A DNA stretch of 64,000 bases, taken from the NCBI GenBank assembly GCA_965261435.1, contig CBDHDL010000021.1, forward strand, positions 142,872-206,871, in the 5' to 3' direction. Source of the stretch: Candidatus Poribacteria bacterium (GTDB taxonomy: Bacteria; Poribacteria; WGA-4E; WGA-3G). The notes below the pieces were generated by a model. It did no database searches and was not told the origin of the DNA. It worked only from the letters and a program-made list of their open reading frames with translations. The position numbers and the translations under genes are program-made. Positions 4,972-63,810 of this stretch are shown here, piece by piece (the first letter of the stretch is position 1; every line of letters starts with the position of its first letter).

Positions 4972-5369
4972 ATAGGATTATATATCACGTCATTATGCTG
5001 ATGCTTCAACCAGTTTGAATCTGTGGTAAAAACACTACATTTTTGAACACATTATTCAGGAACAAATAGTATCTTCTTATTCAATTCAGGGATTAGATAT
5101 TTGGATTTTGGAATTGTGAAAAGAGTCGGAGACTACAACCTATATATAATGGTTGAGGTGTATCAGGGAATCTAACCTTACGCATACAAATTCGGTTGCC
5201 ACATGCGTAAATTTAAGATTGTAGCTCCGACTCACCTAAGGAGGCGTATATTCTATTTAGCAATTTTTATGCCAAGAGAAATGTTGTTTATAAGTGTCTT
5301 TGTCGTTATTTTTGCCTATTTTTTTGACATACTGATGAAAAATTGGACACTGAAGATTTTACTTCGCCT

Positions 5370-12160: not shown

Positions 12161-12208
12161 TCCTCACATTTCAAATTATGGTTAACTATAGAAGTAATTC
12201 AAGAACAT

Positions 12209-12440
12209 ATCTCATAAATCATTTATATTAGGACTTATGCAAAATGACCAAATTTCACCTATTTTCACATGATTCAGGTATGTCAGAATACGCGTTTGGT
12301 ATTCTGAATTGGTTAGGAAACCGCACCTACCGGGGGAGTGCGTAAGTCCTATATATGTTGAATTCTGAGTTGTTTGTGATGTGTATTAGACTGATACAAC
12401 GGACAGGGAGACCCTGTCCCTACGAAAATAGGTTTTGCAT
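12209..12440. repeat. degenerate copy of a dispersed about 110-bp element ending in the hairpin GGACAGGG-aga-CCCTGTCC followed by TACGAA
   Basis: gaacatatctcataaatcatttata... at 12209 and gttgtttgtgatgtgtattagactgatacaacggacagggagaccctgtccctacgaaaa at 12373..12432 match the copies at 12693..12805 and 47968..48060. Confidence 0.55.
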
Positions 12441-12692
12441 ATCGGGTGGGGAAACCCCCTTCCTACGAACGGATCTGCTCATCATTTGAGTGTAGACAGA
12501 ACACTAATATGTTTACTTTATACATTATACATAACTATCATATTTCAGTCAATATTCAAAAAACATATTAAATGTCTTAGTATGATATTATAGGATATAA
12601 TATCATACATTCCGCAGTTGTTTAATCAGATTTTGAGTATTTTAGTGGGGGAAGTGCAGTATCAGGAACGGTCTTGCATGCTTTAGGTGTAG

Positions 12693-12805
12693 AACGTATC
12701 TCATAAATCATTTATATGGTGAGTTTTTTGTTGTTTGTGATGTGTAATAGACTGATACAACGGACAGGGAAACCCCGTCCCTACGAAAAACAGGTGCTTT
12801 AATCT
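12693..12805. repeat. second copy of the same dispersed element (GGACAGGG-N3-CCCNGTCC hairpin followed by TACGAA)
   Basis: gaacgtatctcataaatcatttatatggtgagttttttgttgtttgtgatgtgtaatagactgatacaacggacagggaaaccccgtccctacgaaaaacaggtgct is nearly identical to 47968..48060 plus 48248..48285. Confidence 0.6.
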
Positions 12806-13007
12806 TTATTAGGGACGAGATGTTTATTTTTCTATGCCGTTCCTACGGAACTCAAGAAAGGGGTGATAACGTTTTTCTATAAACATTTCGTCCCAAATGA
12901 AGTTAAAAAAAATAAGTCAGGTAATTGGGCGAGGTTAGGAAGAAATCAACGGTATGAATGCCATTTAGGCATTCCCCGCCTCGCCAGCAGAGTGGGGGTA
13001 ACTGCCT

Positions 13008-16475: not shown

Positions 16476-16661
16476 TTAACTTCCTTTAATATCTGAAAAT
16501 GCAAGAATAGCACGTTATACCATTTCTATTAATTTTTCTCTCATTACCGCCTGTTTAGAAATGAAGCGGGGAACGGCACAATCTAACAGAATGTGCTACA
16601 ACAAAGCAACATTTTCAATTAGAAATGGTATTATTTGATAGGAGTTCTTATTGCACAATAT

Positions 16662-34240: not shown

Positions 34241-34940
34241 AATAAGCCCAAAATATTATAGTTGTAAATTAGCAAAAATTGTCTTATTATAACTGTAATA
34301 CGATTTATGGTAGTGTGAGCGTTCACACTATATTGATTCTTAGCAAGTGCTACTTTTTAGGTGTGTCTTTTATCTAAAACTGTACCATCAAAAATGATAT
34401 GTCCGTTGTGGGTTTGATTCAGGTGCGGTTTAACACTTTCCCAGACACAACGGGGTAGTAAACGATCACTCTATATGCGTCAATTTAGTGAATTTCCCAG
34501 GCCGGTAGGTGCGATTTCCTAATCGCGCTGGATCCTTCGCGAAAACCTTTATGAACGCAATTCGCACAAAGCCGGTTCGGTTAGGAAACCGAACCTACCG
34601 ACCTGAAATTTATAGCGGGATTCTCCTTAAAGTGACGCTTACGGGGTGGTAAACGATCACCCGCAAAATAACGATTAATTTGATCATGACTGAACTGTTC
34701 ACAGTGATCCGTAAAATTGATTATAGCATAGTTGACAAGTGTAGTTAGTAGATATTGACAATAATTTACTGTTTTGTCAATACTTAACTAAAAATAAACG
34801 GAGATACTCCATCATAAGAGATTGTTTGAGATTGCTATTAAGTATTATATTAACCCAAGTCGCCGCCTTGTAGCATAATCTGTTAGATTGTGCCTGTGAG
34901 GGTGCAATCTAACAGTTTACGCTACGATATATTATGAAAA

Positions 34941-37900
34941 ATGGATTATTTTCTATTTAAGGAATTATTAATGTCTCATAGAAAATATGGAAGATGGTAT
35001 GTAACATTTTTACTTTTGTGTGTTTTTGTCCTCTATTCTATAAGTTATGCGGATGTGACTCCTGTTGCTGACCGCACGCCACAAGTGCGTGATGCGATTG
35101 TTGCTGCAGTACCGGGTGTGGATTCTGCAGCCGATGTGACTGCGGAGCATCTGTCAACGATGACGAGTCTTACCCTGCGTTTGTTAAAGATAACGTCGTT
35201 GGCATCAGGTGATTTTTCTGGGTTAACAGGTATGACTTCTCTGAACCTCTACGGGAACCAGCTCTCCAGTTTACCTGCTGGTATTTTTGAAGGGTTGACA
35301 TCTTTGACAACACTACGTTTAGGGAGAAACGCTGTGGATCCTCTCCCTTTGACTGTATCATTAGAAAAGGTTGCCGAAGGTGAGTTCAAGGCGGTTGTCC
35401 CTGCAGGAGCGACGTTTGATATTGTTTTACCGATCACTGTTGCAAATGGCAGTATCACGGGTGGTACGACAGCACTCACAATTTCTCAGGGTGGCACAGA
35501 GAGTAGCCTGTTTGAGGTAACACGCACCCCTGGTACAACAGGTGAAGTCACCGTTGATATTGGTACATTACCGAGTTTGCCTCGTAATCATTATGGTTAC
35601 GAACTTGTCAAATCCGATGCACTTCTCCTGACTATCATCGGTGGCATAAACACGGCACCTACTTTTGCTGAAGGCAATATCACTATACGTACCATTGCAG
35701 AAAATGTCTCGGTAGGCACGAACATCGGTGCGCCGATAACAGCCACGGATGTAGAGGATGACACACTGACTTGGACCCTCGGTGGCGTTGATGCCGATTC
35801 CTTTGAGATAAATAGTACAACAGGGCAGCTTAAGACCAAAGCACCGCTTGACTATGAAACCAAGCGTGTCTATTCGGTGTCCCTCACAGTTGCTGATGAA
35901 GAGCTATCCGATACGATAACGGTAATTATCAGCGTGATTGACGTAAGTGATACTGTTGTCGCTGCGGATGTTTTTCCTGTCGTTGACCGCACGCCACAAG
36001 TGCGTGATGCAATCGTGGCGGCGATCCCCACTGTGCGTGATGCAACCCAAGTAACCGCCACACACCTCGCAAGTATAACAAGTCTGAACCTGCGTAGCAA
36101 AGGTATTTCTGCACTGAAAATAGGTGATTTTTCTGGACTTGTCGCACTTACAAATCTCAATCTATTTGGGAATCAACTTTCCAGTCTACCCGTAGGCACT
36201 TTTGATGGTTTGGGGGCACTCACTACGCTCCGATTAGGTGGCAACGTTGTTGACCCACTCCCGTTGATCGTGTCTTTACAACAGGTCCGTGATAGCGAAT
36301 ATCGTGCGATAATACCTACTGGCGCGCCTTTCCCGATCCGCCTCCCGATTACCGTCACTGATAGTAGTATTAGCGGTGGGATAACATCTGTTGTGATCTC
36401 ACAAGGTAGGCGTCATAGTGCCCCATTTACCGTAGTCGGCACCTCCGCAAAAGTGTCTATCGGCATGTTGCCCGGAGTGCCGCGTAACCATTACGGGTAT
36501 GTGCTTGCACAATCCACCGTCAGCAGCCGCACCGAACAAGTGGCAACTGCGATTGCTGCTGCGATAGGTGTTAGCGATAGTCGTTCTGTGACCGAGATAG
36601 ACCTTGCTACGATAACAAGTCTCGATCTCTCAGGAACTTCTCTTACGACGCTCAAAACAGGCGATTTTGCGGATATGGTATCGTTGACAACACTCAACTT
36701 GTCAAACAATGCACTGACGTACCTACCGGCTGACATCTTTGATGACACACCGTCGCTGCGTTCCATTACTTTAGCCAATAACCAGCTTTCAAGTCTCCCT
36801 GTTGGATTGTTCACGGGGTTGTCGTTTCTGAGCACGGTTGACCTCAGTGGCAACGGCATCACAAGCTTATCAGATGGAACATTCAGTGAGTTATCTACGT
36901 TGACAACCCTCAATTTGTCCAACAACAAGATGTCTACGTTACCAGCTGGCATTTTTGAGGGGTTGACATCGTTGAATCAACTCTCATTAAGTGGGAATAC
37001 AGTGGATCCGTTGCAGATAGGTGTATCACTCCAGAAGGTAGGAATAAATCAGTTTAAAGCAGTCGCTCTCACAGGTGCGCCGTTTAATATCGTGTTGCCA
37101 CTCGAACGGATAAATGGCACGGTTCGCGGCGTGGCAACAACCATTCAGATACCGAAAGGCAGTGTGGAAAGCCAACCCTTGACAATGATCCGGATGCCCA
37201 ACACTATTGCAGCAGTTGAAGTAGATATAGTCAATGTGCCGCAGCTCCCCTCAAATCATAACGGGTACGCGCTTGTGAAATCTATGACTCGGCGGTTAGA
37301 AGTACTCCCGATCTTGAACTCGCCACCCGTGTTCACTGAAGGCACAAGCACGACTCGCAATATCGCAGAGAATACCGCAGCAGGCACAAACATCGGTGAT
37401 CCTGTTTCAGCGACAGATGTTGATGAAGACACGTTAACCTACCGGATCGGTGGTACAGATGCAGCCGCTTTCGCTATTGATACATCCTCCGGACAACTGC
37501 GAACAAGTGCAATCTTAGACTATGAAAACAAGAACTCTTATTCTATCACCGTCTCGGTTTCTGATGGCAATGGTGGAAGTGATAGCATTACCGTCACTAT
37601 CACTGTGACGGATGTTAGTGAAACTAAGATAACACCTGCGATTAGTGACCGCACACCACAGGTACGTGATGCCATCGTTGCTGCAGCCAGTGTTTCCTCC
37701 GCTGCTGATGTGAACGCAGCGCACCTCACAGCGATCAGAACTCTGGACCTTTTAGACCACTCCATCAGTTCCTTGAAAGCAGGTGATTTCAGTGGACTTA
37801 CCTCACTGATATGGATCGATCTGTCTTCCAATTCCATAAGTGATATATCTGCCCTTGAGGACTTGACTTCACTTGAAACGCTCCGTCTGTATGACAATTC

Positions 37901-39038
37901 CATAAGTGATATATCTGTCCTTTCAGGGTTGACTTCATTGACAACACTCAATCTGTCTGGTAATTCCATAGGTGATATATCTGCACTTTCAGGATTGACT
38001 TCACTGACAACGCTCAATCTGTCTATCAATTCCATAAGTGATATATCTGCACTTTCAGGGTTGACTTCACTGACAAGGCTCGGTCTCAGGGGTAATTCCA
38101 TTTCAGATTACGGACCGCTGCGCAGGCTACTCGCAGCAATTGAGGCAGCTGGTAATAGTTTATCACTTGATACTACTATCCCGCTTGTCGGAAACAACAA
38201 CGATGCCCCCATATTCACAGATGGCACCAGCACGACACGTTCTATCGTTGAAAATACTGGATCTGGTGTCAATATCGGTCCTGCGGTATCAGCAACCGAT
38301 GCGGATAACGATACACTCACATATACGCTCATTGGTACGGATGCGTCATCATTTAGCATTGTCAGTTCATCAGGACAGCTCCAAACAAAAGCATCCCTTG
38401 ACTATGAAAACAAAAACTCTTATTCTGTCACCATCTCTGTCTCTGATAGCAACGGTGGGACAGATAGCATTACCGTCACTATCAATGTTACGGATGTGAG
38501 TGAAACGACAATAACACTTGTCAGTGAACGAACATCACAGGTACGCGATGCTATTGTCGCCGCACTCCGTGGTGTTTCCTCCGCGGCGGATGTGACCGCA
38601 GCACACCTCACAACAATTACATCTTTGGACCTTTCAGACCAATCCATCAGTTCATTGAAACCAGGTGATTTCAGTGGACTTTCTTCACTGACAACGCTCC
38701 GTCTGTATGACAATTCCATAAGTGATATATCTGCACTTTCAGGGTTGACTTCACTGACAACGCTCAATCTGTCTGGCAATTCCATAAGTGACATATCTGC
38801 ACTTTCAGGGTTGACTTCACTGACAAGGCTCAATCTGTCTATCAATTCCATAAATGATATATCTGTCCTTTCAGGGTTGACTTCACTGACAAGGCTCAAT
38901 CTGTCTATCAATTCCATAAGTGATATATCTGCACTTTCAGGGTTGACTTCACTGACAAGGCTCGGTCTCAGGGGTAATTCCATTTCAGATTACGGACCGC
39001 TGCGCAGGCTACTCGCAGCACTTGAGGCAAGCTGGTAA
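34941..39038 (+). CDS. giant surface protein, segment 1 (signal peptide, Ig/cadherin-like repeats, LRR modules); open frame ends at a +1 frameshift
   Basis: Signal-like N-terminus. Repeated module RTPQVRDAIVAA...AADVTAAHL followed by LRRs (NSISDISALSGLTSLTTLNL). Cadherin-like repeats (LDYE.K..YS.TV.VSDG...D.ITVTI.VTDV). It stops at 39036 where ...LEAAGNSLSLDTTIP of every other module reads gcaAgctggtaa, with an extra A at about 39029. Confidence 0.7.
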   Translation: MDYFLFKELLMSHRKYGRWYVTFLLLCVFVLYSISYADVTPVADRTPQVRDAIVAAVPGVDSAADVTAEHLSTMTSLTLRLLKITSLASGDFSGLTGMTSLNLYGNQLSSLPAGIFEGLTSLTTLRLGRNAVDPLPLTVSLEKVAEGEFKAVVPAGATFDIVLPITVANGSITGGTTALTISQGGTESSLFEVTRTPGTTGEVTVDIGTLPSLPRNHYGYELVKSDALLLTIIGGINTAPTFAEGNITIRTIAENVSVGTNIGAPITATDVEDDTLTWTLGGVDADSFEINSTTGQLKTKAPLDYETKRVYSVSLTVADEELSDTITVIISVIDVSDTVVAADVFPVVDRTPQVRDAIVAAIPTVRDATQVTATHLASITSLNLRSKGISALKIGDFSGLVALTNLNLFGNQLSSLPVGTFDGLGALTTLRLGGNVVDPLPLIVSLQQVRDSEYRAIIPTGAPFPIRLPITVTDSSISGGITSVVISQGRRHSAPFTVVGTSAKVSIGMLPGVPRNHYGYVLAQSTVSSRTEQVATAIAAAIGVSDSRSVTEIDLATITSLDLSGTSLTTLKTGDFADMVSLTTLNLSNNALTYLPADIFDDTPSLRSITLANNQLSSLPVGLFTGLSFLSTVDLSGNGITSLSDGTFSELSTLTTLNLSNNKMSTLPAGIFEGLTSLNQLSLSGNTVDPLQIGVSLQKVGINQFKAVALTGAPFNIVLPLERINGTVRGVATTIQIPKGSVESQPLTMIRMPNTIAAVEVDIVNVPQLPSNHNGYALVKSMTRRLEVLPILNSPPVFTEGTSTTRNIAENTAAGTNIGDPVSATDVDEDTLTYRIGGTDAAAFAIDTSSGQLRTSAILDYENKNSYSITVSVSDGNGGSDSITVTITVTDVSETKITPAISDRTPQVRDAIVAAASVSSAADVNAAHLTAIRTLDLLDHSISSLKAGDFSGLTSLIWIDLSSNSISDISALEDLTSLETLRLYDNSISDISVLSGLTSLTTLNLSGNSIGDISALSGLTSLTTLNLSINSISDISALSGLTSLTRLGLRGNSISDYGPLRRLLAAIEAAGNSLSLDTTIPLVGNNNDAPIFTDGTSTTRSIVENTGSGVNIGPAVSATDADNDTLTYTLIGTDASSFSIVSSSGQLQTKASLDYENKNSYSVTISVSDSNGGTDSITVTINVTDVSETTITLVSERTSQVRDAIVAALRGVSSAADVTAAHLTTITSLDLSDQSISSLKPGDFSGLSSLTTLRLYDNSISDISALSGLTSLTTLNLSGNSISDISALSGLTSLTRLNLSINSINDISVLSGLTSLTRLNLSINSISDISALSGLTSLTRLGLRGNSISDYGPLRRLLAALEASW

Positions 39039-40986
39039 TAGTTTATCACTTGATACTACTATCCCACCTGTCCGCAGCAACAACAATGCCCCCGTATTCA
39101 CAGATGGCACGAGCACAACACGCTCTGTCGCGGAAAACAGTGGTTCTGGTGTCAATATCGGTTCTGTGGTATCAGCAACCGATGCGGATAACGATACACT
39201 TACATATACGCTCATTGGCACAGATGCGTCATCATTTAGCATTATCAGTTCATCAGGACAGCTCCAAACAAAAGCATCCCTTGACTATGAAAACAAAAAC
39301 TCTTATACAGTCACAGTGTCAGTTTCTGATGGCAACGGTGGGACAGATAGCATTACCGTCACTATCAATGTTACGGATGTTAGTGAAACGACGATAACAC
39401 TCGTCAGTGAAAGAACATCACAGGTGCGCGATGCTATTGTCGCCGCACTCCATGGTGTTTCCTCCGCGGCGGATGTGACCGCAGCACACCTCACAGCGAT
39501 TACATCTTTGGACCTTTCAGACCAATCCATCAGTTCATTGAAACCAGGTGATTTCAGTGAACTTACCTCACTGACAACGCTCAATCTGTCTTACAATTCC
39601 ATAGGTGATATATCTGCACTTGAGGACTTGACTTCACTGACAACGCTCAATCTGGCTGGCAATTCCATAAGTGATATATCTATCCTTTCAGGGTTAACTT
39701 CACTGACAAGGCTTAATCTGTCTATCAATTCCATAAGTGATATATCTGCCCTTGAGAACTTGACTTCACTGACAAGGCTCAATCTATCTGACAATTCCAT
39801 AAGTGATATATCTGCCCTTGAGAACTTGACTTCACTGACAAGGCTCGGTCTCAGGGGTAATTCCATTTCAGATTACGGACCGTTGCGCAGGCTCCTCGCA
39901 GCACTTGAGGCAGCTGGTAATAGTTTATCACTTGATACTACTATCCCGTCTGTCCGTAGCAACAACAATGCACCCGTATTCACAGATGGCACGAGTACAA
40001 CGCGCCACATCCCAGAAAACAGTGGTTCTGGTGTTAACATCGGTTCTGCGGTCTCAGCAACCGATGCGGATAACGATACACTCACATATACGCTCATTGG
40101 CACAGATGCGTCATCATTTAGCGTTGTCAGTTCATCAGGACAGCTCCAAACAAAAGCATCCCTTGACTATGAAAACAAAAACTCATATACAGTCACAGTG
40201 TCAGTTTCTGATGGAAAGAGTGGAACCGATAGCATTACCGTCACTATCAATGTTACGGATGTTAGTGATACGCCGCTAACATCTGACAGTGAGCGAACAC
40301 CGCAAGTGCGTGATGCCATCGTTGCTGCAGCCGGTGTAGCATCTGCGACTGATGTGACCACAACACACCTTGCAACGATTACATCTTTAGACCTTTCAAA
40401 CCTATCCATCGGTTCCTTGAAAGCAGGTGATTTCAGTGGACTTACCTCACTGACATGGCTCGATTTGTCTGACAATTCCATAAGTGATATATCTGCACTT
40501 GAGGACTTGACTTCACTTGAAACGCTCCATCTGTATGACAATTCCATAAGTGATATATCTGCACTCTCAGGGTTGACTTCACTGACAACGCTCAATCTGG
40601 CTGACAATTCCATAAGTGATATATCTGCGCTTGAGGACTTGACTTCACTGACAAAGCTCGGTCTCAGGGGTAATTCCATTTCAGATTACGGACCGTTGCG
40701 CAGGCTCCTCGCAGCACTTGAGGCAACTGGTAATAGTTTATCACTTGATACTACTATCCCGCCTGTCCGTAGCAACAACAATGCACCCGTATTCACAGAT
40801 GGCACGAGCACAACGCGTTTTGTCGTGGAGAACACTGGTTCTGGTGTTAACATCGGTTCTGCGGTATCAGCAACCGATGCGGATAACGATACACTTGCAT
40901 ATACGCTCATTGGCACGGATGCGTCCTCGTTTAGCATTGTCGGTTCATCCGGGCAGCTTGCTAACAAAAGCAACTTTGGATTATGA
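39022..40986 (+). CDS. same giant gene, segment 2 (cadherin-like plus LRR modules); ends at a second +1 frameshift
   Basis: Continues the about 880-bp module periodicity. The first residues of the ORF call are out of frame. It ends at 40986 where gggcagctTgctaac (extra T at about 40959) replaces the gggcagctgctaac of the following units. Confidence 0.65.
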   Translation: MRQAGNSLSLDTTIPPVRSNNNAPVFTDGTSTTRSVAENSGSGVNIGSVVSATDADNDTLTYTLIGTDASSFSIISSSGQLQTKASLDYENKNSYTVTVSVSDGNGGTDSITVTINVTDVSETTITLVSERTSQVRDAIVAALHGVSSAADVTAAHLTAITSLDLSDQSISSLKPGDFSELTSLTTLNLSYNSIGDISALEDLTSLTTLNLAGNSISDISILSGLTSLTRLNLSINSISDISALENLTSLTRLNLSDNSISDISALENLTSLTRLGLRGNSISDYGPLRRLLAALEAAGNSLSLDTTIPSVRSNNNAPVFTDGTSTTRHIPENSGSGVNIGSAVSATDADNDTLTYTLIGTDASSFSVVSSSGQLQTKASLDYENKNSYTVTVSVSDGKSGTDSITVTINVTDVSDTPLTSDSERTPQVRDAIVAAAGVASATDVTTTHLATITSLDLSNLSIGSLKAGDFSGLTSLTWLDLSDNSISDISALEDLTSLETLHLYDNSISDISALSGLTSLTTLNLADNSISDISALEDLTSLTKLGLRGNSISDYGPLRRLLAALEATGNSLSLDTTIPPVRSNNNAPVFTDGTSTTRFVVENTGSGVNIGSAVSATDADNDTLAYTLIGTDASSFSIVGSSGQLANKSNFGL

Positions 40987-43357
40987 GAAAAAAGTCCAGT
41001 ATTCTGTGACGGTGAAAGTTTCTGATGGAAAACTCACGGACACAATCACGGTTACTATCAATGTGACAGATGTGCAGGAGAACCGAGCCCCGCTATTTAG
41101 TGCTGACACAGCAACACGGTCTGTCGCAGAAAACACTGCTGCTGGACAAAACATCGGGGCTGCAATAACAGCAACAGACTCGGATAACGACAACTTGACC
41201 TATACTCTTGAGGGTACGGATGCGTCCTCGTTTAGCATTGTCAGTTCATCCGGGCAGCTGCTAACAAAAGCAACTTTGGATTATGAGAAAAAAGTCCAGT
41301 ATTCTGTGACGGTGAAAGTTTCTGATGGAAAACTCACGGACACAATCACGGTTACTATCAATGTGACAGATGTGCAGGAGAACCGAGCCCCGCTATTTAG
41401 TGCTGACACAGCAACACGGTCTGTCGCAGAAAACACTGCTGCTGGACAAAACATCGGGGCTGCAATAACAGCAACAGACTCGGATAACGACAACTTGACC
41501 TATACTCTTGAGGGTACGGATGCGTCCTCGTTTAGCATTGTCAGTTCATCCGGGCAGCTGCTAACAAAAGCAACTTTGAATTTTGAAAGCAAAAGCAGCT
41601 ATGAAGTGACGGTGTCTGTTTCTGATGGGAATGGCGGAAGTGATAGTATTACTGTCACTATCAATGTGGCGGATGTGAATGAGAACCAACCTGTATTTAG
41701 TGATGGCGCAAGCACGACGCGGTCTATCGCAGAAAACACTGTCGCAGGTCAAAACATCGGAGACCCAGTATCCGCAACGGATGCGGATACTGGTGATACG
41801 TTAACCTATAGTCTTGGCGGTACGGATGCGTCATCGTTTGATATTATTAGCACATCAGGACAACTTCAAACCAAAGTTGCTTTGGATTATGAGGGGTCGA
41901 AAAATTCCTATACCGTCACCGTGTCTGTCTCTGATGGTAAAGGTGGGACTGATAAGATTACCGTGTCCATCATCGTCACAGATGTAACCGAAACTACTAC
42001 GGCACCTCAGATACAGATTACACCTGTCGGGAAACGGACATCACAGGTGCGTGATGCGATTGTGGCTGACATCTCTGGTGTTTCCTCCGCGGAAGATGTG
42101 ACCGAAGCACACCTCACAACGATCACATCTTTGGACCTTTCAAACCAATCCATCAGTTCCTTGAAAGCAGGTGATTTCAGTGGACTGACTTCGCTGACAC
42201 ACCTCCGTCTGTATAACAATTCCATAAGTGATATATCGGCTCTTTCGGACTTGACTTCACTGACATGGCTCTTTCTGTCTAACAATTCCATAAGTGATAT
42301 ATCGGCTCTTTCAGGGTTGACTAAATTGACAAGGCTCACTCTGTATGACAATTCCGTAAGCGATATATCGGCTCTTTTGGACTTGACTTCACTGACATGG
42401 CTCCATCTGTATGACAATTCTATAAGTGATATATCGGCTCTTTCAGCCTTGACTGAATTGACATGGCTTGAACTGGGGGAGAATTCCATAAGTGATATAT
42501 CGGCTCTTTCAGCCTTGACAGACCTGAGATCGCTCAATCTGTATAACAATACCATAAGTGATATATCGGCTCTCTCGGGCATGACTAAAATGACAGACCT
42601 CTATCTGTCTAAAAATTCCATAAGTGATATATCGGCTCTCTCGGGCATGACTAAAATGACAACGCTCTATCTGTCTAACAATTCCATAAGTGATATATCG
42701 GACCTTGAAGACTTGACTAAATTGACAACGCTCTATCTGTCTAACAATTCCATAAGTGATATATCGGCTCTCTCGGGCATGACTAAAATGACATGGCTCT
42801 TTCTGTCTAACAATTCCATAAGTGATATATCGGACCTTGAAGACTTGACTAAATTGACAACGCTCTATCTGTCTAACAATTCCATAAGTGATATATCTGC
42901 CCTTGAAGACTTGACTAAATTGACATGGCTTCAACTGGATGGCAATTCCATTTCAGATTACGGACCGTTGGGCAGGCTCAAGGCAGCAATTGAAGCAGCC
43001 GGTAATAGTTTATCACTTGACATTACTATCCCAGCAGATGCTCCCTCACATGCCGCTGTTCCTAAGTCAACATCACTTTTACCCAACTTCCCCAACCCGT
43101 TCAACCCGGAAACGTGGATTCCGTATCAGTTAGCCAAACCCTCAGCGGTGACAATAACGATATTTGATGTCCGGGGACGTGTTGTGCGGACGTTGATTTT
43201 AGGCACTCAACCTTCGGGTATCTATAGAAGTCAAAGCAAGGCAGCCCATTGGGATGGTAAAAACGCGTTCGGGGAAAAGGTCGCAGGAGGAATGTATTTC
43301 TATAGGCTTACGGCAGGTGATTTTTCTGCCACACGCAAAATGTTAATTTTGAAGTGA
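40957..43357 (+). CDS. same giant gene, segment 3: cadherin-like repeats, LRR array and T9SS-type C-terminal sorting domain
   Basis: In-frame continuation LLTKATLDYEKKVQYSVTVKVSDG. The C-terminus NFPNPFNPETWIPYQL...VTITIFDVRGRVVRTL...GIYRSQSKAAHWDGKNAFGEKVAGGMYFYRLTAGDFSATRKMLILK matches the T9SS-type CTD. The listed ORF start at 40718 is an out-of-frame artefact. Confidence 0.7.
40981..41580. repeat. perfect 2 x 300-bp tandem duplication (one cadherin-like repeat unit) inside the giant gene
   Basis: 40981..41280 and 41281..41580 appear identical. The antisense ORFs 40981..41193 and 41281..41493 have identical 70-aa translations. Confidence 0.85.
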
Positions 43358-43411
43358 CTTTTGACAAAATGGGCAAATTTGAAATAGAATCAAACAATTA
43401 AAGGAGTTTAT

Positions 43412-45760
43412 GTGAAAACTTTAGGCAATAAATCAAAGAAAATTGGGCAAACCTTGATGATTCTTAGTTTTGCTTTTCTAATGTTAACAACAGTTCCTGT
43501 TATAGCGAATGAATTTGAAATCGGAACACAGTTCGGGATTTCCCGTTTTATTCCTGACAGCGAGGATTCTTCAACGACAAGTATTACCTTCACTCGGTTA
43601 CCAGCAGGAACACTTGTTGATATTGGGACATCTCCAACATCACTGTACGCGACGTTCTTTCTGGGCAAAAAATATGCGGTTGGGTCAGAATTCAGTTTTG
43701 GAGAAATGTCAGTGTCAGATGAGTCTTGGGCCGATGAGGATAACGCAAGCTTAATGACACTTCACCTTGGTGGTCGCGCATCATACTTTTTGTTTAGTCA
43801 TTCAGTATCTTCACCTTACGTATTCGGACAGATGGCTCGCACTATATTTATTGGTGATGCTAATTTCTTTTTTGAAGGTGACAACAACTCATCTCTTGCG
43901 AGTTTGGGGGGCGGTTTAGGGTATCAGTGGCGTATAGGCCCTGCTTTTGTGCTGCGGACAGAAGCACAGTATCAACGCGTGTTTGTTGTAGATGAAGATC
44001 AAAATGCAAATGAGTTCTCATTTATTATTGGCATCGGCACACGGTTCGGAGGCAATAACAACCCAGCAGAGGCAAAACTTGATCTCAATGACACAGAATT
44101 CACGCCTGTCAGTGCAAGAACACCACAGGTACGTGACGCGATTGTTGCTGCGGTGCCGGGTGTGAATAATGCTGATGCTGTGACCGCAGCACACCTCGCG
44201 GAGATTACATCTTTAGACCTTGCAGACCCATCCATCAGTTCCCTAAAAGCAGGTGATTTCAATGGACTTACCTCACTGACAGAACTCTTTCTGACTTCCA
44301 TAAGTGATATATCTGTACTTGAAGATTTGTCTTCACTGACAGAACTCAATTTGTGGAATAATTCCATAAGTGATATATCCGCACTTGAAAACCTAACAGC
44401 ACTGACAGATCTTTTTTTGTCTTCCAATTCCATAAGTGACATATCTGCGCTTGAGAACCTCACAGGACTGACAACGCTCGATCTGTCTTCCAGTACCGTA
44501 AGTGATATATCCGCCATTGAAAACCTAACAGCACTGGAATGGCTCAAGCTGGGTAACAGTTCCATCAGCGATATATCTGCGCTTCAAAACTTGACAGCAC
44601 TGAAAGAACTCTATCTGTCTTCCAGTACCATAAGTAATATATCCACACTTGAAAACCTAACAGCATTGGAATGGCTCGATTTGTCTTCCAATTCCATAAG
44701 TGATATATCTGCCCTTGAAAACATGACAGCACTAACATTTCTCGATCTGTCTTCCAATTCCATAAGTGATATATCCGCACTTGAAAACTTGACAGCACTG
44801 ACAATGCTCAATCTTTATGGTAACAACATCAAGGATATATCTGCGTTTGAGGACATGACTTCACTAACAGATCTCTATCTGAGTCACAATTCCATAAGTG
44901 ATATATCCGCACTTGAAAACTTGACAGCACTGAGAACACTCAATCTGGCTAAGAATTCCGTAAGTGATATATCTGCGCTTGAAAATCTCACAGCACTGAC
45001 AGAGCTCACTCTACCTGAAAGTTCCATAAATGATATATCTGCGCTTGAAAATCTCACAGCACTGACAACGCTCTATCTGGGTAGCAACGATATCAATGAT
45101 ATATCTACGCTTGAAAACTTGACAGCACTGACAGAACTCCATCTGTTTTCCAATTCCATAAGTGATATATCTGCGCTTGAAAACATGACCTTACTGAGAG
45201 AGCTGAATCTGGGGGGTAATTCCATAAGTGATATACCGTCTCTTGAAAACTTGACAGCACTGACAACGCTCTATCTGTGGGATAATTCCATAAGCGATAT
45301 ATCTGTGCTTGAAAACCTGACTTCACTGAGAACACTGAATATATATCGCAACGACATCAAGGATATATCTGGGCTTGAAAACCTGACCTTATTGAAAGAT
45401 CTCTATCTGAGTCACAATTCCATAAGTGATATATCCGCGCTTGAAAACTTGACAGTGCTAACAAGGTTGACTTTGCATCACAATGCTATCAGCGATGTAT
45501 CTGCGCTTGAAAACCTGAATGCACTGAAAATGCTCAAGCTGAGTCACAATTCCATCAAGGATATATCTGCACTTGAAAACCTGATTGCACTGACAGAGCT
45601 CAATCTGGATAATAATTCTATAAGTGATATATCCGCACTTGAAAATTTGACAGCATTGAAAAAGCTTGAACTGCGGAACAATCCGATTTCAGATTACGGA
45701 CCGCTTCGTAGACTCAAAGCAAAAAATCCAGGTATGCAGACTGATATTACTATTCCGTAG
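43412..45760 (+). CDS. paralogous LRR protein with N-terminal signal peptide and outer-membrane beta-barrel-like domain; C-terminal sorting domain lost
   Basis: GTG start 5 nt after AAGGAG. Signal MILSFAFLMLTTVPVIA. About 200-aa region of alternating hydrophobic strands ending ...FSFIIGIGTRFGG (OMP beta-barrel-like). Then the RTPQVRDAIVAAVPGV cap and about 25 LRRs (NSISDISALENLTAL). It ends ...TDITIP-TAG. Confidence 0.7.
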   Translation: MKTLGNKSKKIGQTLMILSFAFLMLTTVPVIANEFEIGTQFGISRFIPDSEDSSTTSITFTRLPAGTLVDIGTSPTSLYATFFLGKKYAVGSEFSFGEMSVSDESWADEDNASLMTLHLGGRASYFLFSHSVSSPYVFGQMARTIFIGDANFFFEGDNNSSLASLGGGLGYQWRIGPAFVLRTEAQYQRVFVVDEDQNANEFSFIIGIGTRFGGNNNPAEAKLDLNDTEFTPVSARTPQVRDAIVAAVPGVNNADAVTAAHLAEITSLDLADPSISSLKAGDFNGLTSLTELFLTSISDISVLEDLSSLTELNLWNNSISDISALENLTALTDLFLSSNSISDISALENLTGLTTLDLSSSTVSDISAIENLTALEWLKLGNSSISDISALQNLTALKELYLSSSTISNISTLENLTALEWLDLSSNSISDISALENMTALTFLDLSSNSISDISALENLTALTMLNLYGNNIKDISAFEDMTSLTDLYLSHNSISDISALENLTALRTLNLAKNSVSDISALENLTALTELTLPESSINDISALENLTALTTLYLGSNDINDISTLENLTALTELHLFSNSISDISALENMTLLRELNLGGNSISDIPSLENLTALTTLYLWDNSISDISVLENLTSLRTLNIYRNDIKDISGLENLTLLKDLYLSHNSISDISALENLTVLTRLTLHHNAISDVSALENLNALKMLKLSHNSIKDISALENLIALTELNLDNNSISDISALENLTALKKLELRNNPISDYGPLRRLKAKNPGMQTDITIP

Positions 45761-47495: not shown

Positions 47496-47975
47496 TCCTT
47501 TATACATGATGCACTCAATGACCTATTTGAAAAACAAGAGTATCCGCGTATAGCGGATTAGCCATCAGAAAGAGAGAGCGAAGGACGAGTTGTTGAGTCT
47601 CATGACCGGAAACATTCACCTGGTTGTGTAAAGTTTTTGGCAAAGCATTGATTTTTTGCTTATGTTTGGTTTTGTTTACATAGCACTCCGCTGGAGTGCG
47701 GGCACTTGACATACATTTTTCTATAGACATAATGCTCCGCTGGAGCAAAAAGCGTTCTTGACAGGTAAGAGATATCCTCACGCCAGAGGCGTGATATGTC
47801 TATAGAACTCACAATGTCCAAAACCCCCACTCCAGCGGAGTGCTATGTCTTGGATCGAGCCGATAAGGAAACGCTGCCAAAATATTTACAGACCCGCAAC
47901 TTAGGTTAAAATAGACAAAGACATCTACACATGTTATAATATTTGATTGGAACTGTAGTCAATCTATACCAGAAC

Positions 47976-48325
47976 GTATCTCATAAATCATTTATATGGT
48001 GAGTTTTTTGTTGTTTGTGATGTATAACGGACAGGGAGACCCAGTCCCTACGAACAGAACGGACAGGGAAACCCAGTCCCTACGAACGGAACGGACAGGG
48101 AGACCACGCCCCTACGAACGGAACGGACAGGGAGACCCAGTCCCTACGAACAGAACGGACAGGGAAACCCAGTCCCTACGAACAAACGGACAGGGAGACC
48201 CAGTCCCTACGAACAAACGGACAGGGAAACCCAGTCCCTACGAACAAACGGACAGGGAAACCCAGTCCCTACGAAAAACAGGTGCTGTGATGAGAAATTT
48301 ATGGACAATTAGGTTTATGAGATAC
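47976..48325. repeat. about 350-bp element with 12-13-bp terminal inverted repeats (GTATCTCATAAA ... TTTATGAGATAC) containing the dispersed 110-bp element and a spacerless tandem array; it ends 17 nt before the metH ATG
   Basis: Left end 47976..47987 gtatctcataaa; right end 48314..48325 tttatgagatac. The interior matches 12693..12805. Confidence 0.55.
48026..48278. repeat. tandem array of eight 31-32-nt units AACGGACAGGGA(G/A)ACCCAGTCCCTACGAAC(A/G)(G/A), each containing an imperfect hairpin
   Basis: Units at 48026, 48058, 48090, 48122, 48154, 48186, 48217 and 48248. No spacers. The ORF 47996..48370 is just a translation of this array. Confidence 0.85.
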
Positions 48326-48341
48326 ACTCTAAATCTATATC

Positions 48342-51300
48342 ATGGAAGAGAATTTAGCGTTTATGGCTGATCCAGATCGAATTACACAGTTGAAACATGC
48401 ACTGTCAGAGCGGATTTTGGTGCTTGATGGTGCGATGGGTTCACTTATACAGACGTATCAACTCTCGGAAGCGGATTTTCGAGGTGAGACGTTCGCTGAT
48501 CATACTTCTGAACTCAAAGGTTATAATGACCTGTTATCTATCACGCAACCACAAATTATCAGAGAAATTCATAGCAGTTACTGTAACGCAGGTGCTGACA
48601 TACTCACAACTAACACCTTCACAAGCACGTCGGTGTCAATGGCAGACTATCAGCTTGAAGAATTTGCATATCAGGTCAACGTTTCAGCAGCCCAAATTGC
48701 TCGTGAAATAGCTGATGCTTGCTCAACAGTTGAAAAGACTCATTTCGTTGCAGGTAGCATGGGACCAACGAATCGAAGTTGTTCAATCTCTCCGGATGTA
48801 AACGATCCAGGTTACCGTAATATCACTTTTGCTGAACTCGTTTCTGCCTATACGACACAAGCTGAAGGCTTAATTGATGGCGGTGTGGATTTACTACTCG
48901 TTGAGACCGTTATGGACACACTAAATTGCAAAGCAGCACTTTTTGCAATTCAAACTCTAACAGAAAAACGTGGGATCAACATCCCGACTATCGTTTCATC
49001 AGACAGGAGTGGTGGCGGCGGAAGAAACCTGTCAGGACAAACAGTCGAAGCATTCTGGAATTCTATTCGACACGTAGACTTACTTGCTGTCGGTTTAAAC
49101 TGTGGTTTTGGAGCGAAGCAGATAAGACCCTTTCTTGTGGAGATGTCAAAGCTTGCAGACATTCCCATCATTTGTTATCCAAATGCGGGTCTACCCAATG
49201 AACTTGGTCACTATACTCAGACACCTGAAGAACTGGGTAACTGGATGCACGATTTCGCTCGCAACGGATTCGTCAATATCGTAGGTAGTTGTTGTGGTAG
49301 TCAACCTGAGCATATAGAAGCGATTGTCAAGGTCGCGGCAGCGTATCCACCCCGTCAACTCCAATCACAAAAACCTGCCTGCAGACTCAGCGGTTTAGAG
49401 GCATTCAATATTACACCGGAATCCCTCTTTGTAAACGTTGGCGAAAGAACAAATGTCACAGGTTCACGAAGATTTGCATCACTCATCAAGAAGGAAGATT
49501 ATGAAACAGCATTAGAAGTCGCTCGTGATCAAGTCGAAAACGGTGCACAACTGATCGATATTAATATGGATGCGGGTCTGTTAGATGCCAAAACTGCCAT
49601 AGTCAAGTTCATAAATCTCATCGCTGCAGAACCAGATATAAGCCGTGTTCCTATTATGATAGATTCCAGTAAATGGGAAGTAATTGATGCAGGTTTACAA
49701 TGTATACAAGGAAAAGGTGTCGTCAACTCAATTAGTTTGAAAGAGGGTGAGGACGATTTCTTAGATAAAGCACGAAGTATTAGACATTACGGCGCTGCTG
49801 TCATTGTAATGGCGTTTGATGAAAAAGGACAAGCCGATACGCTTCAACGCAAAGTAGAAATTTGTCAAAGAGCGTATCAATTGTTAATAGAAGAAGTTGA
49901 TTTCCCCCCTGAAGACATTATCTTTGATCCTAATATCTTCGCGATAGCAACAGGGATTGATGAGCATAATGAATATGCGCTTGCTTTTATAGATGCATGC
50001 AAGCAGATCAAAGAGACTTGTCCGCACGCCTTAGTCAGTGGAGGCGTCAGTAACGTTTCCTTTGCCTTTCGCGGTAACGATACAGTTCGCGAAGCGATGC
50101 ACGCAGCGTTTCTTTACCATGCGATCAATGCTGGTATGGATATGGGGATCGTAAATGCTGGACAACTTGCTGTCTATGACGACATCCCTAAACCCCTCTT
50201 AGATTCTGTAGAAGATGTATTATTTAATCGACGAAAAGATGCAACAGACCGACTCGTTAATTTGGCAGAAACATTGCATGGTACAAAAAAGAAGAAACGT
50301 GTTGATAAAGAATGGCGGAAGCTCTCCGTTGAAGATCGGTTAAGTCACGCCCTCGTAGAAGGTGTCACTGAACACATCGTGGAAGATACTGAGGAAGCAA
50401 GATTAAAATACAAGCGTCCGATACAGGTAATTGAAGGTCCTCTGATGTTCGGAATGGACAGAGTCGGTGAGTTGTTCGGAGACGGTAAGATGTTCCTACC
50501 TCAAGTTATCAAAAGCGCACAGGTAATGAAACGCGCTGTTGCACATTTAATTCCATTTATTGAAAAGGAGCAATCTGAAGGAGAAATCAAATCAAGAGGG
50601 AAATTAGTCATGGCAACAGTGAAAGGTGATGTCCATGACATTGGGAAGAACATCGTTGGTGTGGTCCTTGGTTGTAACAACTATGAAATCATTGACCTTG
50701 GGGTCATGGTAGCTGCAGAAGATATATTGGAAACAGCACGCAAAGAAGATGCTGATATAATTGGTTTAAGTGGTCTAATTACACCTTCATTGGATGAGAT
50801 GGTTCATGTTGCAAAGGAGATGGAAAGAGAAGGTTTCAGTATTCCACTCCTCATTGGTGGTGCCACTACATCAAAAATACATACAGCTATTAAGATTGAA
50901 CCTGAATACAATGGGGCAACGATACACGTCAAAGATGCATCCCGCAGTGTTGGTGTCGTTCGCAACTTACTGAGCAATGAAAACCGACAAACAATAGTCA
51001 ACCAGACACGTGAAGAATATGAAGGAATTCGTAAGAAGCGAGCCAAAACGCAACAACGAACCAATCTTTTACCATTTGGAACAGCACAGCAACGCAAACT
51101 AAGACTTGATTGGCAAGACTACAATCCAGATAAACCGAGAATGACAGGAGTCAAGGTTTATGAGGATTTTCCGCTTGAAGAACTTGTCACCTATATTGAT
51201 TGGACACCTTTTTTCACTACTTGGGAAATGAAAGGAAAATATCCTAAAATATTGGATGATTCAAAGATAGGTCCAAAGGCACAAGAACTGTATAAAGATG

Positions 51301-52034
51301 CAAATAAATTATTAGATGATATTATCAGTTATAAGAAGATTTCCGCCAAAGGGGTTATAGGAATCTTCCCAGCTAATTCTGTTGGTGAAGACATAGAAAT
51401 ATATAATGAAGACAGAACAGCAGTCATCGCAACAATTCATCACTTACGGCAACAGACAGAACAACCATTCTCAAGACCAAATCTGAGTCTTGCAGATTTC
51501 ATAGCGCCAAAAAACACATCAATACCTGATCATATAGGTGCATTCGCAGTGACAACAGGTATTGGTGTACCTGAACTTTGTAATGAATTTGAAGAGAATC
51601 ATGACGACTACAACAGCATTATGACCAAAGCAATCGCAGACCGTTTAGCAGAAGCCTTCGCAGAATATATGCACAAGCATGTGAGGAGAGAATTATGGGG
51701 TTACGCTGGTCATGAGGAATTGGAAAACGAAGAACTCATTGCGGAAAAATATAGAGGTATCAGACCCGCCCCAGGTTATCCAGCATGTCCAGATCACAAT
51801 CAGAAACGAGTATTGTTTCGTCTATTGAATGCGACTGAAAATACCGATATCTCACTCACTGAGAGTCTTGCCATGTTTCCAGCTGCTTCAGTGAGTGGTT
51901 GGTATTTTTCACATCCGGAATCAAGATACTTTAGCATTGCCAGAATTGGAGAGGATCAAATTGCAAGTTATGCCAAACGATCAGAAATGGATTTGGACAC
52001 TGCAAGACGCTGGTTAAGACCTTTATTGCTGTAA
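48342..52034 (+). CDS. metH: cobalamin-dependent methionine synthase
   Basis: 1230 aa. N-terminal [15 protein letters not shown] (Hcy domain), pterin-binding domain, B12-binding domain and C-terminal activation domain. An alternative start, MADPDR at 48363, is preceded by GAAGAG. Confidence 0.9.
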
Positions 52035-62711: not shown

Positions 62712-63119
62712 TCAACCCTCCTATTACTATGAATATGTTTAACACAATACCTTCGCCAAAAATGGACAGTTTTTCATAAGCCAATCAACTTTGAAAAACC
62801 ATTCAATGTGCAGGTGGAGCAGAAAACTACTTTTATCCACATCCTGTTTAGAATACACTAAGTTTAGAACCTTTACACCTCAAGACAGTCAAATGTTTGT
62901 TGAAGTATTTACATGATTAAAATGCTTCTGCTAAAACATGAAACTATTCTAATTCATTAAAATCCTTGAACATCACGGATCGTCGGGTGGTATCCAACAC
63001 ATATCCATTCAACGCAAACTTAGATAATTGGCGAAGTTATTGATAAATGTACTACAACTATAACGAGTTGTGTTAGTTAACTATTTGTTTGTATCCTTTT
63101 CACACAGATGGACTTAATG

Positions 63120-63210
63120 TTATAAACATATCGTCCCTACGGGACTGAAGAGAGGGTATTCTACGTTTTTCTATAAACATATCGTCCCTACGGGACTGAA
63201 GAACCTATCT
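63120..63210. repeat. two direct copies of a 35-bp palindrome-containing unit (CTATAAACATATCGTCCCTACGGGACTGAAGAGA) about 50 bp apart
   Basis: The core GTCCCTACGGGAC is a perfect hairpin. The units are separated by only about 15 bp. Confidence 0.8.
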
Positions 63211-63627
63211 TTCATAAGGAAAACACACTGAATATTGGACACATGTGAAAACATGTTGTACAATAAGTTATTTAGCAGAAGTCGTAACTATAATAATGCA
63301 TATATTCATATTATGCAATAACTATTTTTATATGTTGCTTTATGTTTAATATCTTAATATTAACTTTACAATACGAAAAAAATACCGTAGTTATTCTATA
63401 GGACACAAACTGGGAGTTTGTGGTACAAAAAAGAAACATTTTCAATTAGAAAATGTCAATAAGATACCAGTAAACACTGCGGTGAATCTTTCTATGTTTA
63501 TGGTCAATGTGAGTGCGCGTATGGCATTCGTCCAAATCAACGTCAAATACGCGTTTGGTATATGGTGGGTATCGCTCACGCTCTACCTATAAGTGTAAAC
63601 TTAAGGAATTTTCTATGTCAGAAATCC

Positions 63628-63810
63628 TCTCCAGTCCCGTAGGGACGCTATGTTTATAGTTAAACGTTATACAACCCCTCTTTAGTCCCGTAGGGACGAT
63701 ATGTGTAGTAGTTCATCCTGATATAAACATATCGTCCCTACGGGACTGAAGAGAGGTGAGGGTATACATTTTTCTATAAACATATCGTCCCTACGGGACT
63801 GAAGAGAAGA
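63628..63810. repeat. cluster of four more copies of the same unit, two inverted then two direct
   Basis: Inverted copies at about 63629..63660 and 63677..63708; direct copies at 63722..63757 and 63771..63808; the period is 48-53 bp. Confidence 0.8.

Follow-up and report, generated by a model that had tools for sequence, protein, structure and literature searches.

The window, by which we mean the whole stretch of 64,000 nucleotides of Candidatus Poribacteria DNA analysed here, contains metH, the gene for the cobalamin-dependent methionine synthase, preceded by a promoter and, between this promoter and the start codon, by a composite repeat holding eight copies of a short hairpin unit. The coordinates of these features, of two further copies of the repeat and of the transposase genes that turned out to be relevant for their interpretation are collected in table 1. 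The closest relatives of the encoded protein come from Candidatus Poribacteria, and the window MetH itself matches P0001. The longest metH ORF starts at 48342, and this start is also used by the gene calls P0001 and P0121. The comparison of N-terminal sequences suggests, nevertheless, that the true start is probably not this one but the ATG at 48363 (MADPDR..), because orthologues (five N-termini read) measure 1224-1225 aa and have MTDSDK.. or MADSER.. at their beginning. Starting at 48342 would add seven residues, MEENLAF, which are absent from those five orthologues, and the ATG at 48363 is preceded by AGAGAA-N10, as in the orthologous locus L003. The other listed MetH homologues measure 1222-1251 aa, mostly 1224. 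With the start at 48363, the right arm of the inverted repeat discussed below lies 37 nt from the gene, not 16, and the distance of 17 nt between the right end of the element and the metH ATG, given in an earlier note on this DNA, needs to be corrected.

Table 1. Features of the metH locus, related repeat copies in the window and RAYT genes in other Poribacteria. Positions refer to the window unless another locus is named.
Feature	Position	Strand	Evidence or remark
metH, cobalamin-dependent methionine synthase	48363..52034	+	five Pfam domains; orthologue N-terminal alignment; start codon probable
Conserved metH promoter	47912..47940	+	-35 TAGACA (47912-47917), 17-nt spacer, extended -10 TGTTATAAT
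Left module of composite repeat (AGAACGTATCTCATAAATCATTTATATGGTGAGTTTTTTGTTGTTTGTGATGT...)	47971..48025	+	holds left 12-mer arm, 47976-47987
REP array, eight units head-to-tail	48026..48276	+	Tandem Repeats Finder, pattern search, 62-nt identical blocks, hairpin folds, stem-pair tally
Right tail of composite repeat (..AAACAGGTGCT)	48277..48286	+	last stretch common with 12691-12798
Segment found at the metH locus only, ending in TTTATGAGATAC	48287..48325	+	right arm found only here
Single-unit composite copy, 108 nt	12691..12798	+	REP unit at 12762-12788
Second single-unit composite copy	12202..12433	+	perfect-palindrome REP unit 12401-12427; read from sequence, repeat families
Diverged REP-like unit with the same tail (GGGTGGGGAAACCCCCTTC + CTACGAAC)	12441..12470	+	adjoins copy at 12202-12433
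RAYT gene, L012	12437-13036
RAYT gene, L014	4001-4564
RAYT gene, L015	2559-3080
RAYT gene, L013	10799-11341

The metH promoter scores 11 of 12 in a promoter scan and has a TG extension. The motif AAAT(A/G)GACA...TGTTATAAT is invariant, with fixed spacing, at seven Poribacteria metH loci, namely those of the window, L010, L003, L004, L007, L008 and L009. The repeat begins 30 nt downstream of this promoter. Measured from the -10 box, the annotated ATG is 401 nt away in the window and 337 nt in L010, compared with 36-69 nt in the five other species, whose metH leaders (L003, L004, L007, L008 and L009) all lack the repeat element; this difference in leader length indicates that the repeat is an insertion into the metH 5'UTR. 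As the repeat is located between the promoter and the start codon, transcription of metH must run through it, and the array is probably co-transcribed from the upstream promoter as a part of a structured leader of about 400 nt. The leader RNA is predicted to fold with -131.6 kcal/mol, which is stabler than shuffled sequences (z = -3.9), and in the centroid fold a 14-bp helix between two 12-mer arms closes the array into a loop. No sigma-70-like site was found inside any of the three element copies on either strand. The earlier note had maintained that the promoter and 5'UTR of metH are provided by or through the element. The latter half is consistent with our analysis, since transcription probably passes through the element, but the promoter conserved at the seven loci lies upstream of it; together with the lack of sigma-70-like sites in any copy, this also speaks against a mobile promoter. 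The broader suggestion, repeat DNA of mobile origin lying downstream of the metH promoter and ahead of the start codon, is supported.

An ORF of 124 aa at 47996-48370 was considered as a potential coding sequence and rejected: it has no Pfam match, the period of the repeat is not a multiple of three, and the ORF is unconserved in L010, where a 76-aa ORF is called at this place. Just upstream of the metH promoter, at 47678-47848, there is an inverted repeat with 66-nt arms that are 76% complementary and 39 nt apart; it holds a further strong sigma-70-like site, TTGACA-16-CATAAT (47706-47733), and two terminator-like hairpins. Further upstream, an approximately 11-kb block of leucine-rich-repeat/repeat-module genes (34941-45760; periods of 66, 300 and 882 nt; four long ORFs), together with Pribosyltran and Yip1 genes, separates metH from a LolA / CDP-OH_P_transf / LigT / RecA cluster. 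In L003, L007 and L009 this cluster lies directly and divergently upstream of metH.

The array itself was delimited by Tandem Repeats Finder at 48026-48275, with 7.9 copies, a period of 32 and 93% matches, the period being 32 nt in the first four units and 31 nt in the last three. Its unit consists of AACGGACAGGGA(G/A)ACCCAGTCC followed by CTACGAA and a linker of 1-4 nt or, read directly, of AACGGACAGGGA(G/A)ACCCAGTCCCTACGAAC and then the 1-4 nt linker. It can be drawn as a hairpin with an 8-bp stem and a 3-nt loop, GGACAGGG-aga-CCC(A)GTCC, after which CTACGAA follows. A pattern search of the window for the unit returned eight matches in the array and single ones at 12401 and 12762, where shuffled sequences would be expected to give none; these 10 units, distributed over three loci in 64 kb, are all intergenic. 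In every one of them (10/10) the CTAC directly abuts the palindrome (..GTCC-CTAC-GAA), a layout also seen in the units of L001, L010, L012, L014 and L015, and read on the opposite strand the unit is GTAG plus palindrome. At stem position 5, an A·A mismatch is present in seven of the eight units of the array; the third unit is degenerate. This mismatch makes the hairpin of the A·A variant weaker (-4.3 kcal/mol, folded as DNA) than that of the perfect variant at 12401 (-8.0 kcal/mol, z = -4.1). Both the eight head-to-tail units and the ability of each to fold as a hairpin, as had been noticed earlier, were thus borne out by the tandem-repeat and pattern searches and by DNA folding, respectively. 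A single hairpin unit has been amplified locally to give the array, and the identity of units 1-2 to units 4-5 (62-nt identical blocks) implies that it grew partly by duplication of blocks of more than one unit.

The surroundings of the array are repeated as well. Positions 47971-48023 are identical to 12691-12743 (53/53), and 12759-12798 matches 48247-48286 in 39 of 40 positions (97.5%), with similarity ending at 48286; the first 27 nt of the left module also occur at 12202-12228. The recurrence of a sequence of about 110 bp near 12.2-12.8 kb, reported in the earlier note, is confirmed by the copies at 12691-12798 and 12202-12433. As read from these alignments, the duplicated composite is about 108 bp long: an AT-rich module of 53 nt is followed by a short stretch that varies, then by a single hairpin unit and AAAACAGGTGCT. 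The AT-rich module forms at best a marginal hairpin (-1.5 kcal/mol), with shuffled sequences doing equally well. The left module includes the 12-mer GTATCTCATAAA, which is found at 47976 and 12696 and, with one mismatch, at 12207; its exact reverse complement, TTTATGAGATAC, is found at 48314-48325 only. The segment 48287-48325, in which this right arm lies, represents native leader sequence or else part of the left end copied in inverted orientation. A nested 123-bp MITE (12229-12351) splits the copy at 12202-12433, a MITE which has its own terminal inverted repeats (TIRs; TAGGACTTATGC / GCGTAAGTCCTA) and a TATAT duplication at both sides, and of which a 21-nt piece recurs inverted at 34502-34522.

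One of the other metH loci, L010, is syntenic with the window and 97.5% identical to it, and represents a second strain of the same species, in which the region upstream of metH is almost the same. Its array has six units against eight in the window, with different linkers and a perfect last unit, and it retains the inverted 12-nt pair; the count of six was taken from a scaffold assembled from short reads and may in part reflect the assembly. A Logan contig that carries the same gene breaks at the array edge, from which it appears that assemblers struggle at the array. The two strains also differ in a 115-bp MITE present in L010 (6380-6494) and absent from the window between 47675 and 47676. 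This MITE begins with the TIR TACCATTTCTA.., has TTA on both sides and, within it, CTAC follows a hairpin (GGCACAATCTAACAGAATGTGCTACAA); the window has a near-identical copy at 16517-16631 and diverged copies at about 46.1 kb and 63.4 kb.

The identity of the hairpin unit became clearer from its occurrence in related genomes. When the unit was scanned in species-representative genomes, the matches listed included a 5.9-Mb Poribacteria MAG (L002 and, with wider flanks, L012) with an array of 34 copies at a 47-nt period, in which the stretch between units is a constant 17 nt. The array is situated between cas5 of a type I-B system and the gene for a 199-aa protein that matches Pfam Y1_Tnp (E 2.7e-6), has the E. 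coli TnpA-REP (4ER8) as its top match among solved structures, and is hit by NCBIfam NF047646, 'REP-associated tyrosine transposase' (RAYT), with an E value of 2.4e-19 and 69.7 bits, this score falling under the cutoff of 80 bits because the match is split by a REP-derived insert. In 31 aligned RAYT sequences, the HUH histidines H81 and H83 and the catalytic Y179 are invariant. In L012 as well as in L014 and L015, GTAG-oriented units lie upstream and CTAC-oriented ones downstream of the RAYT (Y1_Tnp) gene, and the unit arrays flanking RAYT genes in related Poribacteria run to 20-35 copies. L015 is a minimal version with one or two units per side, and the order in L014 is cas5, two GTAG-oriented units, at least 20 CTAC-oriented units, the RAYT gene and another CTAC-oriented unit. 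L013 has a canonical RAYT of a different type (198 bits), on whose two sides a GTAG palindrome of its own stands in inverted orientation, which indicates that REP/RAYT pairs are established in the phylum Poribacteria.

L014 derives from the same sample as L010, the other strain of the window's species, and all 20 of its strictly matched array units carry the window's A·A variant, the mismatch being fixed in 32 units of the window, L010 and L014. This shared variant ties the window array to the RAYT-linked family of L014, although it does not prove that the two originate from the same genome. At stem position 5 of the L012 units we counted A-T in 16 units, G-C in four, G-T in eight and A-C in three, a pattern of compensatory change showing that the palindrome is preserved. 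A tblastn search revealed no RAYT in the window or the metH loci, and the best 120 matches to RAYT or Cas5 include none from the 4.83-Mb contig from which the window was taken. The unit is likewise absent from about 75 kb of metH flanks of other Poribacteria, and a scan of viral contigs with it gave no matches. Two further loci from a metagenome scan with the left-end 21-mer, L005 and L006, were discarded as chance matches, as they share a 21-22-mer with the element and nothing else.

The RAYT ORF of this subfamily itself contains in-frame inverted REP units, with a 39-nt period encoding (I)VGTGSPRP: three in L012 (12707-12815), two in L014 (4277-4338) and one in L015 (2832-2854). Thirty RAYT homologues have from none to about eight such repeats between the HUH motif and the Tyr helix, with the catalytic residues invariant. 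The arrays upstream of the RAYT gene in L012 (10770-12420) and L014 (3250-3985) are bracketed by duplicates of the approximately 26-nt start of the gene (AAAATGAGAATTTATTATGCAACAC), from which it follows that part of its 5' end was drawn into the expanding array.

RAYTs are domesticated HUH/Y1 transposases of the IS200/IS605 superfamily, and the hairpin of a REP, as single-stranded DNA, is the recognition site of the RAYT. REPs are extragenic and typically present in more than 100 copies per genome. Judging from the sequence features described above, we interpret the array as a RAYT-associated, GTAG-tagged REP cluster arranged head-to-tail and inserted in the metH 5' leader of a Poribacteria genome, an interpretation to which we assign a probability of roughly 0.8. 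The assignment to the REP class is based on the palindrome with its GTAG/CTAC tag and on the position of the same unit on both sides of RAYT genes in relatives. REPs have been defined as palindromes of 20-40 bp ending in GTAG, and REP clusters 'reiterated in tandem along with flanking DNA', with pieces of the rayt gene drawn in, have been described (PMC3733652, PMC2817692). The array thus adds one more case to a familiar type of bacterial repeat and does not represent a new system. Certain circumstances count against this assignment, namely that no RAYT occurs in the window, that the density of units is modest, that the hairpin is weakened by the A·A mismatch and that the location is a 5' leader; the REP model also leaves unexplained the inverted repeat of 12 nt by which the element is closed in the predicted RNA fold. 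REPs are mostly found near the 3' ends of genes or between convergent genes and not in 5' leaders (PMC3733652).

The following scenario would account for the locus as a REP cluster. A composite of about 108 bp with one REP unit would have landed behind the conserved promoter, within the leader of metH, most plausibly copied in via RAYT-dependent single-strand processing of the kind proposed for REPs and BIMEs (PMC2817692, PMC8266576). The REP unit would then have been amplified in place to eight (or six) head-to-tail copies by unequal recombination or replication slippage, possibly aided by RAYT cleavage and rejoining. metH would be transcribed through the array as a leader of about 400 nt, in which the array is presumably tolerated.

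Other explanations have to be weighed against this one. The earlier note saw in the element a MITE-like insertion bounded by TIRs, which in its full form would be a MITE with 12-bp TIRs (47976-48325) mobilised in trans by a DDE transposase, its internal array having expanded after the insertion. The perfect 12-nt inverted pair indeed exists and is conserved in L010, its start being at the left edge of the sequence that the copies share, and genuine MITEs with TIRs and duplications do occur in this genome (the strain-variable 115-bp element and the nested 123-bp one). The element also resembles MITEs such as Correia and Nezha in being small, non-coding, near a promoter and probably co-transcribed with its neighbour. 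However, the right arm is missing from the copies at 12202 and 12691 and starts 28 nt past 48286, where the shared homology ends, so that it lies outside the sequence shared with these copies and no TIR pair is common to them all. Neither is there a target-site duplication, the flanks being ..CCAGAAC (AGAAC) on the left and ACTCTAAA.. (ACTCT) on the right, and the complementarity of the right arm to the left end continues outward, reaching the flank of the copy at 12691 (12672-12707, 81% over 36 nt), and not inward. About 2.3 perfect 12-nt inverted pairs within 400 nt are expected per shuffled window, although pure chance is probably an unlikely source of an inverted 12-mer that starts at the very edge of the element. 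With the core of the element being a REP hairpin, we consider a MITE an unlikely explanation. The resemblance to CRISPR repeats without spacers, also raised in the earlier note, was taken up as the idea that the array is of CRISPR type, degenerate or devoid of spacers, and that Cas6 processes its units. Like CRISPR repeats, the units are direct repeats of about 30 nt with one hairpin apiece, here followed by an 8-nt tail, and in L012, L014 and L015 the unit arrays are embedded in type I-B cas operons, in the interval from cas5 to cas3, but this proximity is explained by the RAYT gene located there. The units are separated by only 1-4 nt in the window and by a constant 17 nt in L012, which leaves no spacers, and the genuine CRISPR array of the lineage, found in L013 beside cas1-cas2 with spacers of about 36 nt, uses CTTCTAATCGCACCAATTTGGAATAGAAAC, an unrelated sequence, as its repeat. 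The eight window ORFs flanking the three copies gave no match to a Cas or RAYT family when scanned against Pfam, nor is there a CRISPR-like array among the tandem repeats of the window. The resemblance is therefore without substance, and a CRISPR origin appears very improbable.

A different question is whether the REP array has been recruited for the control of metH, that is, whether the array and the 14-bp panhandle form a selected cis-regulatory leader that modulates the stability or translation of the metH mRNA, with copy number as a tuning device. The array does lie between a conserved promoter and the start codon, the leader is more stable than expected (see above), its long-range helix ends near the ribosome-binding region, and the array has been retained in two strains with different copy numbers. 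Against this, it is absent from the five orthologous leaders, and its unit occurs also in unrelated contexts and beside RAYT genes. The element has no Rfam match at the gathering score or even at E <= 1, no U-tract follows the hairpins on the sense strand (terminator-like matches being on the antisense strand), and the panhandle lacks covariation support, its arms being identical in both strains. The attenuator proposed in the earlier note, or a riboswitch, is hard to reconcile with these observations and with a copy number that varies between strains, and we regard a selected leader as quite improbable. Nothing in our analysis indicates a specific regulatory role of the array in metH; its absence in other species and its variable copy number rather suggest tolerance, presumably neutral, than an evolved control device.

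In comparison with the GTAG REPs and RAYTs described to date (PMC2817692, PMC3733652, PMC3479197; structure 4ER8), the Poribacteria repeats share the short, G+C-rich, imperfect palindrome with its GTAG/CTAC tag, the extragenic occurrence, here as 10 units at three loci of the window, the inverted placement of units on either side of a Y1/HUH transposase gene in relatives, the stem kept by compensatory changes, and the head-to-tail clusters that include bits of flanking DNA. They differ in that the metH array contains head-to-tail units only, at a very short period of 31-32 nt, is placed in a 5' leader instead of at a 3' end, and is dominated by an A·A-mismatched variant, while the RAYT subfamily is distinguished from known RAYTs by the in-frame REP-derived repeats in its ORF and by its position inside a type I-B cas operon. 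A mosaic of REPs and short conserved motifs at several intergenic sites, with clusters expanding and contracting between strains, is also characteristic of E. coli BIMEs and Pseudomonas REPINs. In those, however, REPs alternate in (inverted) orientation, whereas all eight units of the metH array point the same way, and the Poribacteria composite combines one REP type with a 53-nt AT-rich module.

A full-text literature search retrieved no description of REPs or RAYTs from Candidatus Poribacteria, and the REP/RAYT system is hereby extended to these sponge-associated, uncultured bacteria. The metH locus offers a clean case of a probable REP cluster in the 5' leader of an essential biosynthetic gene, with a copy number differing between strains. 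Clusters of this kind disrupt assemblies from short reads and lead gene callers astray, as illustrated here by the spurious 124-aa ORF and by a metH start placed probably seven codons too early. The practical value of recognising them lies in annotation and in avoiding mistaken CRISPR, MITE or riboswitch calls.

The RAYT genes embedded in type I-B cas operons may merit a study of their own. A RAYT gene is found between cas5 and cas3 in four Poribacteria loci, with two different RAYT subfamilies occupying this same position, and 23 contigs, matched on size, are common to the lists of the best 120 Cas5 and the best 120 RAYT matches; as some of these contigs are only 5.6-17 kb long, the cas5-RAYT arrangement seems to be widespread. 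The Cas5 protein has 216 aa in L012 and L014, where most relatives have 242 aa, and the stop codon of its gene is immediately followed by an inverted REP. One could speculate that the REP/RAYT system of Poribacteria is functionally coupled to type I-B CRISPR-Cas, that arrays like the one in the metH leader are products or substrates of this coupling, and that their copy number might tune genes. The retention of a RAYT with intact catalytic motifs between cas5 and cas3, the large REP arrays and the in-frame REP-encoded repeats are what motivates this idea, which we nonetheless rate as a long shot. Between cas6 and cas8b, L012 has about 2 kb of nested simple repeats (5355-7568, equivalent to 904-3063 in L002), composed of (CAGGATTTT)n and (GGAAGGAT)n with a higher-order period of 134/178 nt and including a coiled-coil-like ORF of 21-nt repeats; in L013, cas6 adjoins cas8b.

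The window also harbours a separate hairpin family, (TTTTTC)TATAAACATATCGTCCCTACGGGACTGAAGAG, which has CTAC in the loop. Its members occur at 63111-63806 as well as at 12817-12908 and 47712-47752, in both orientations, as doublets with 94-nt arms 397 nt apart, and diverged members adjoin both places where the metH-type element is found.
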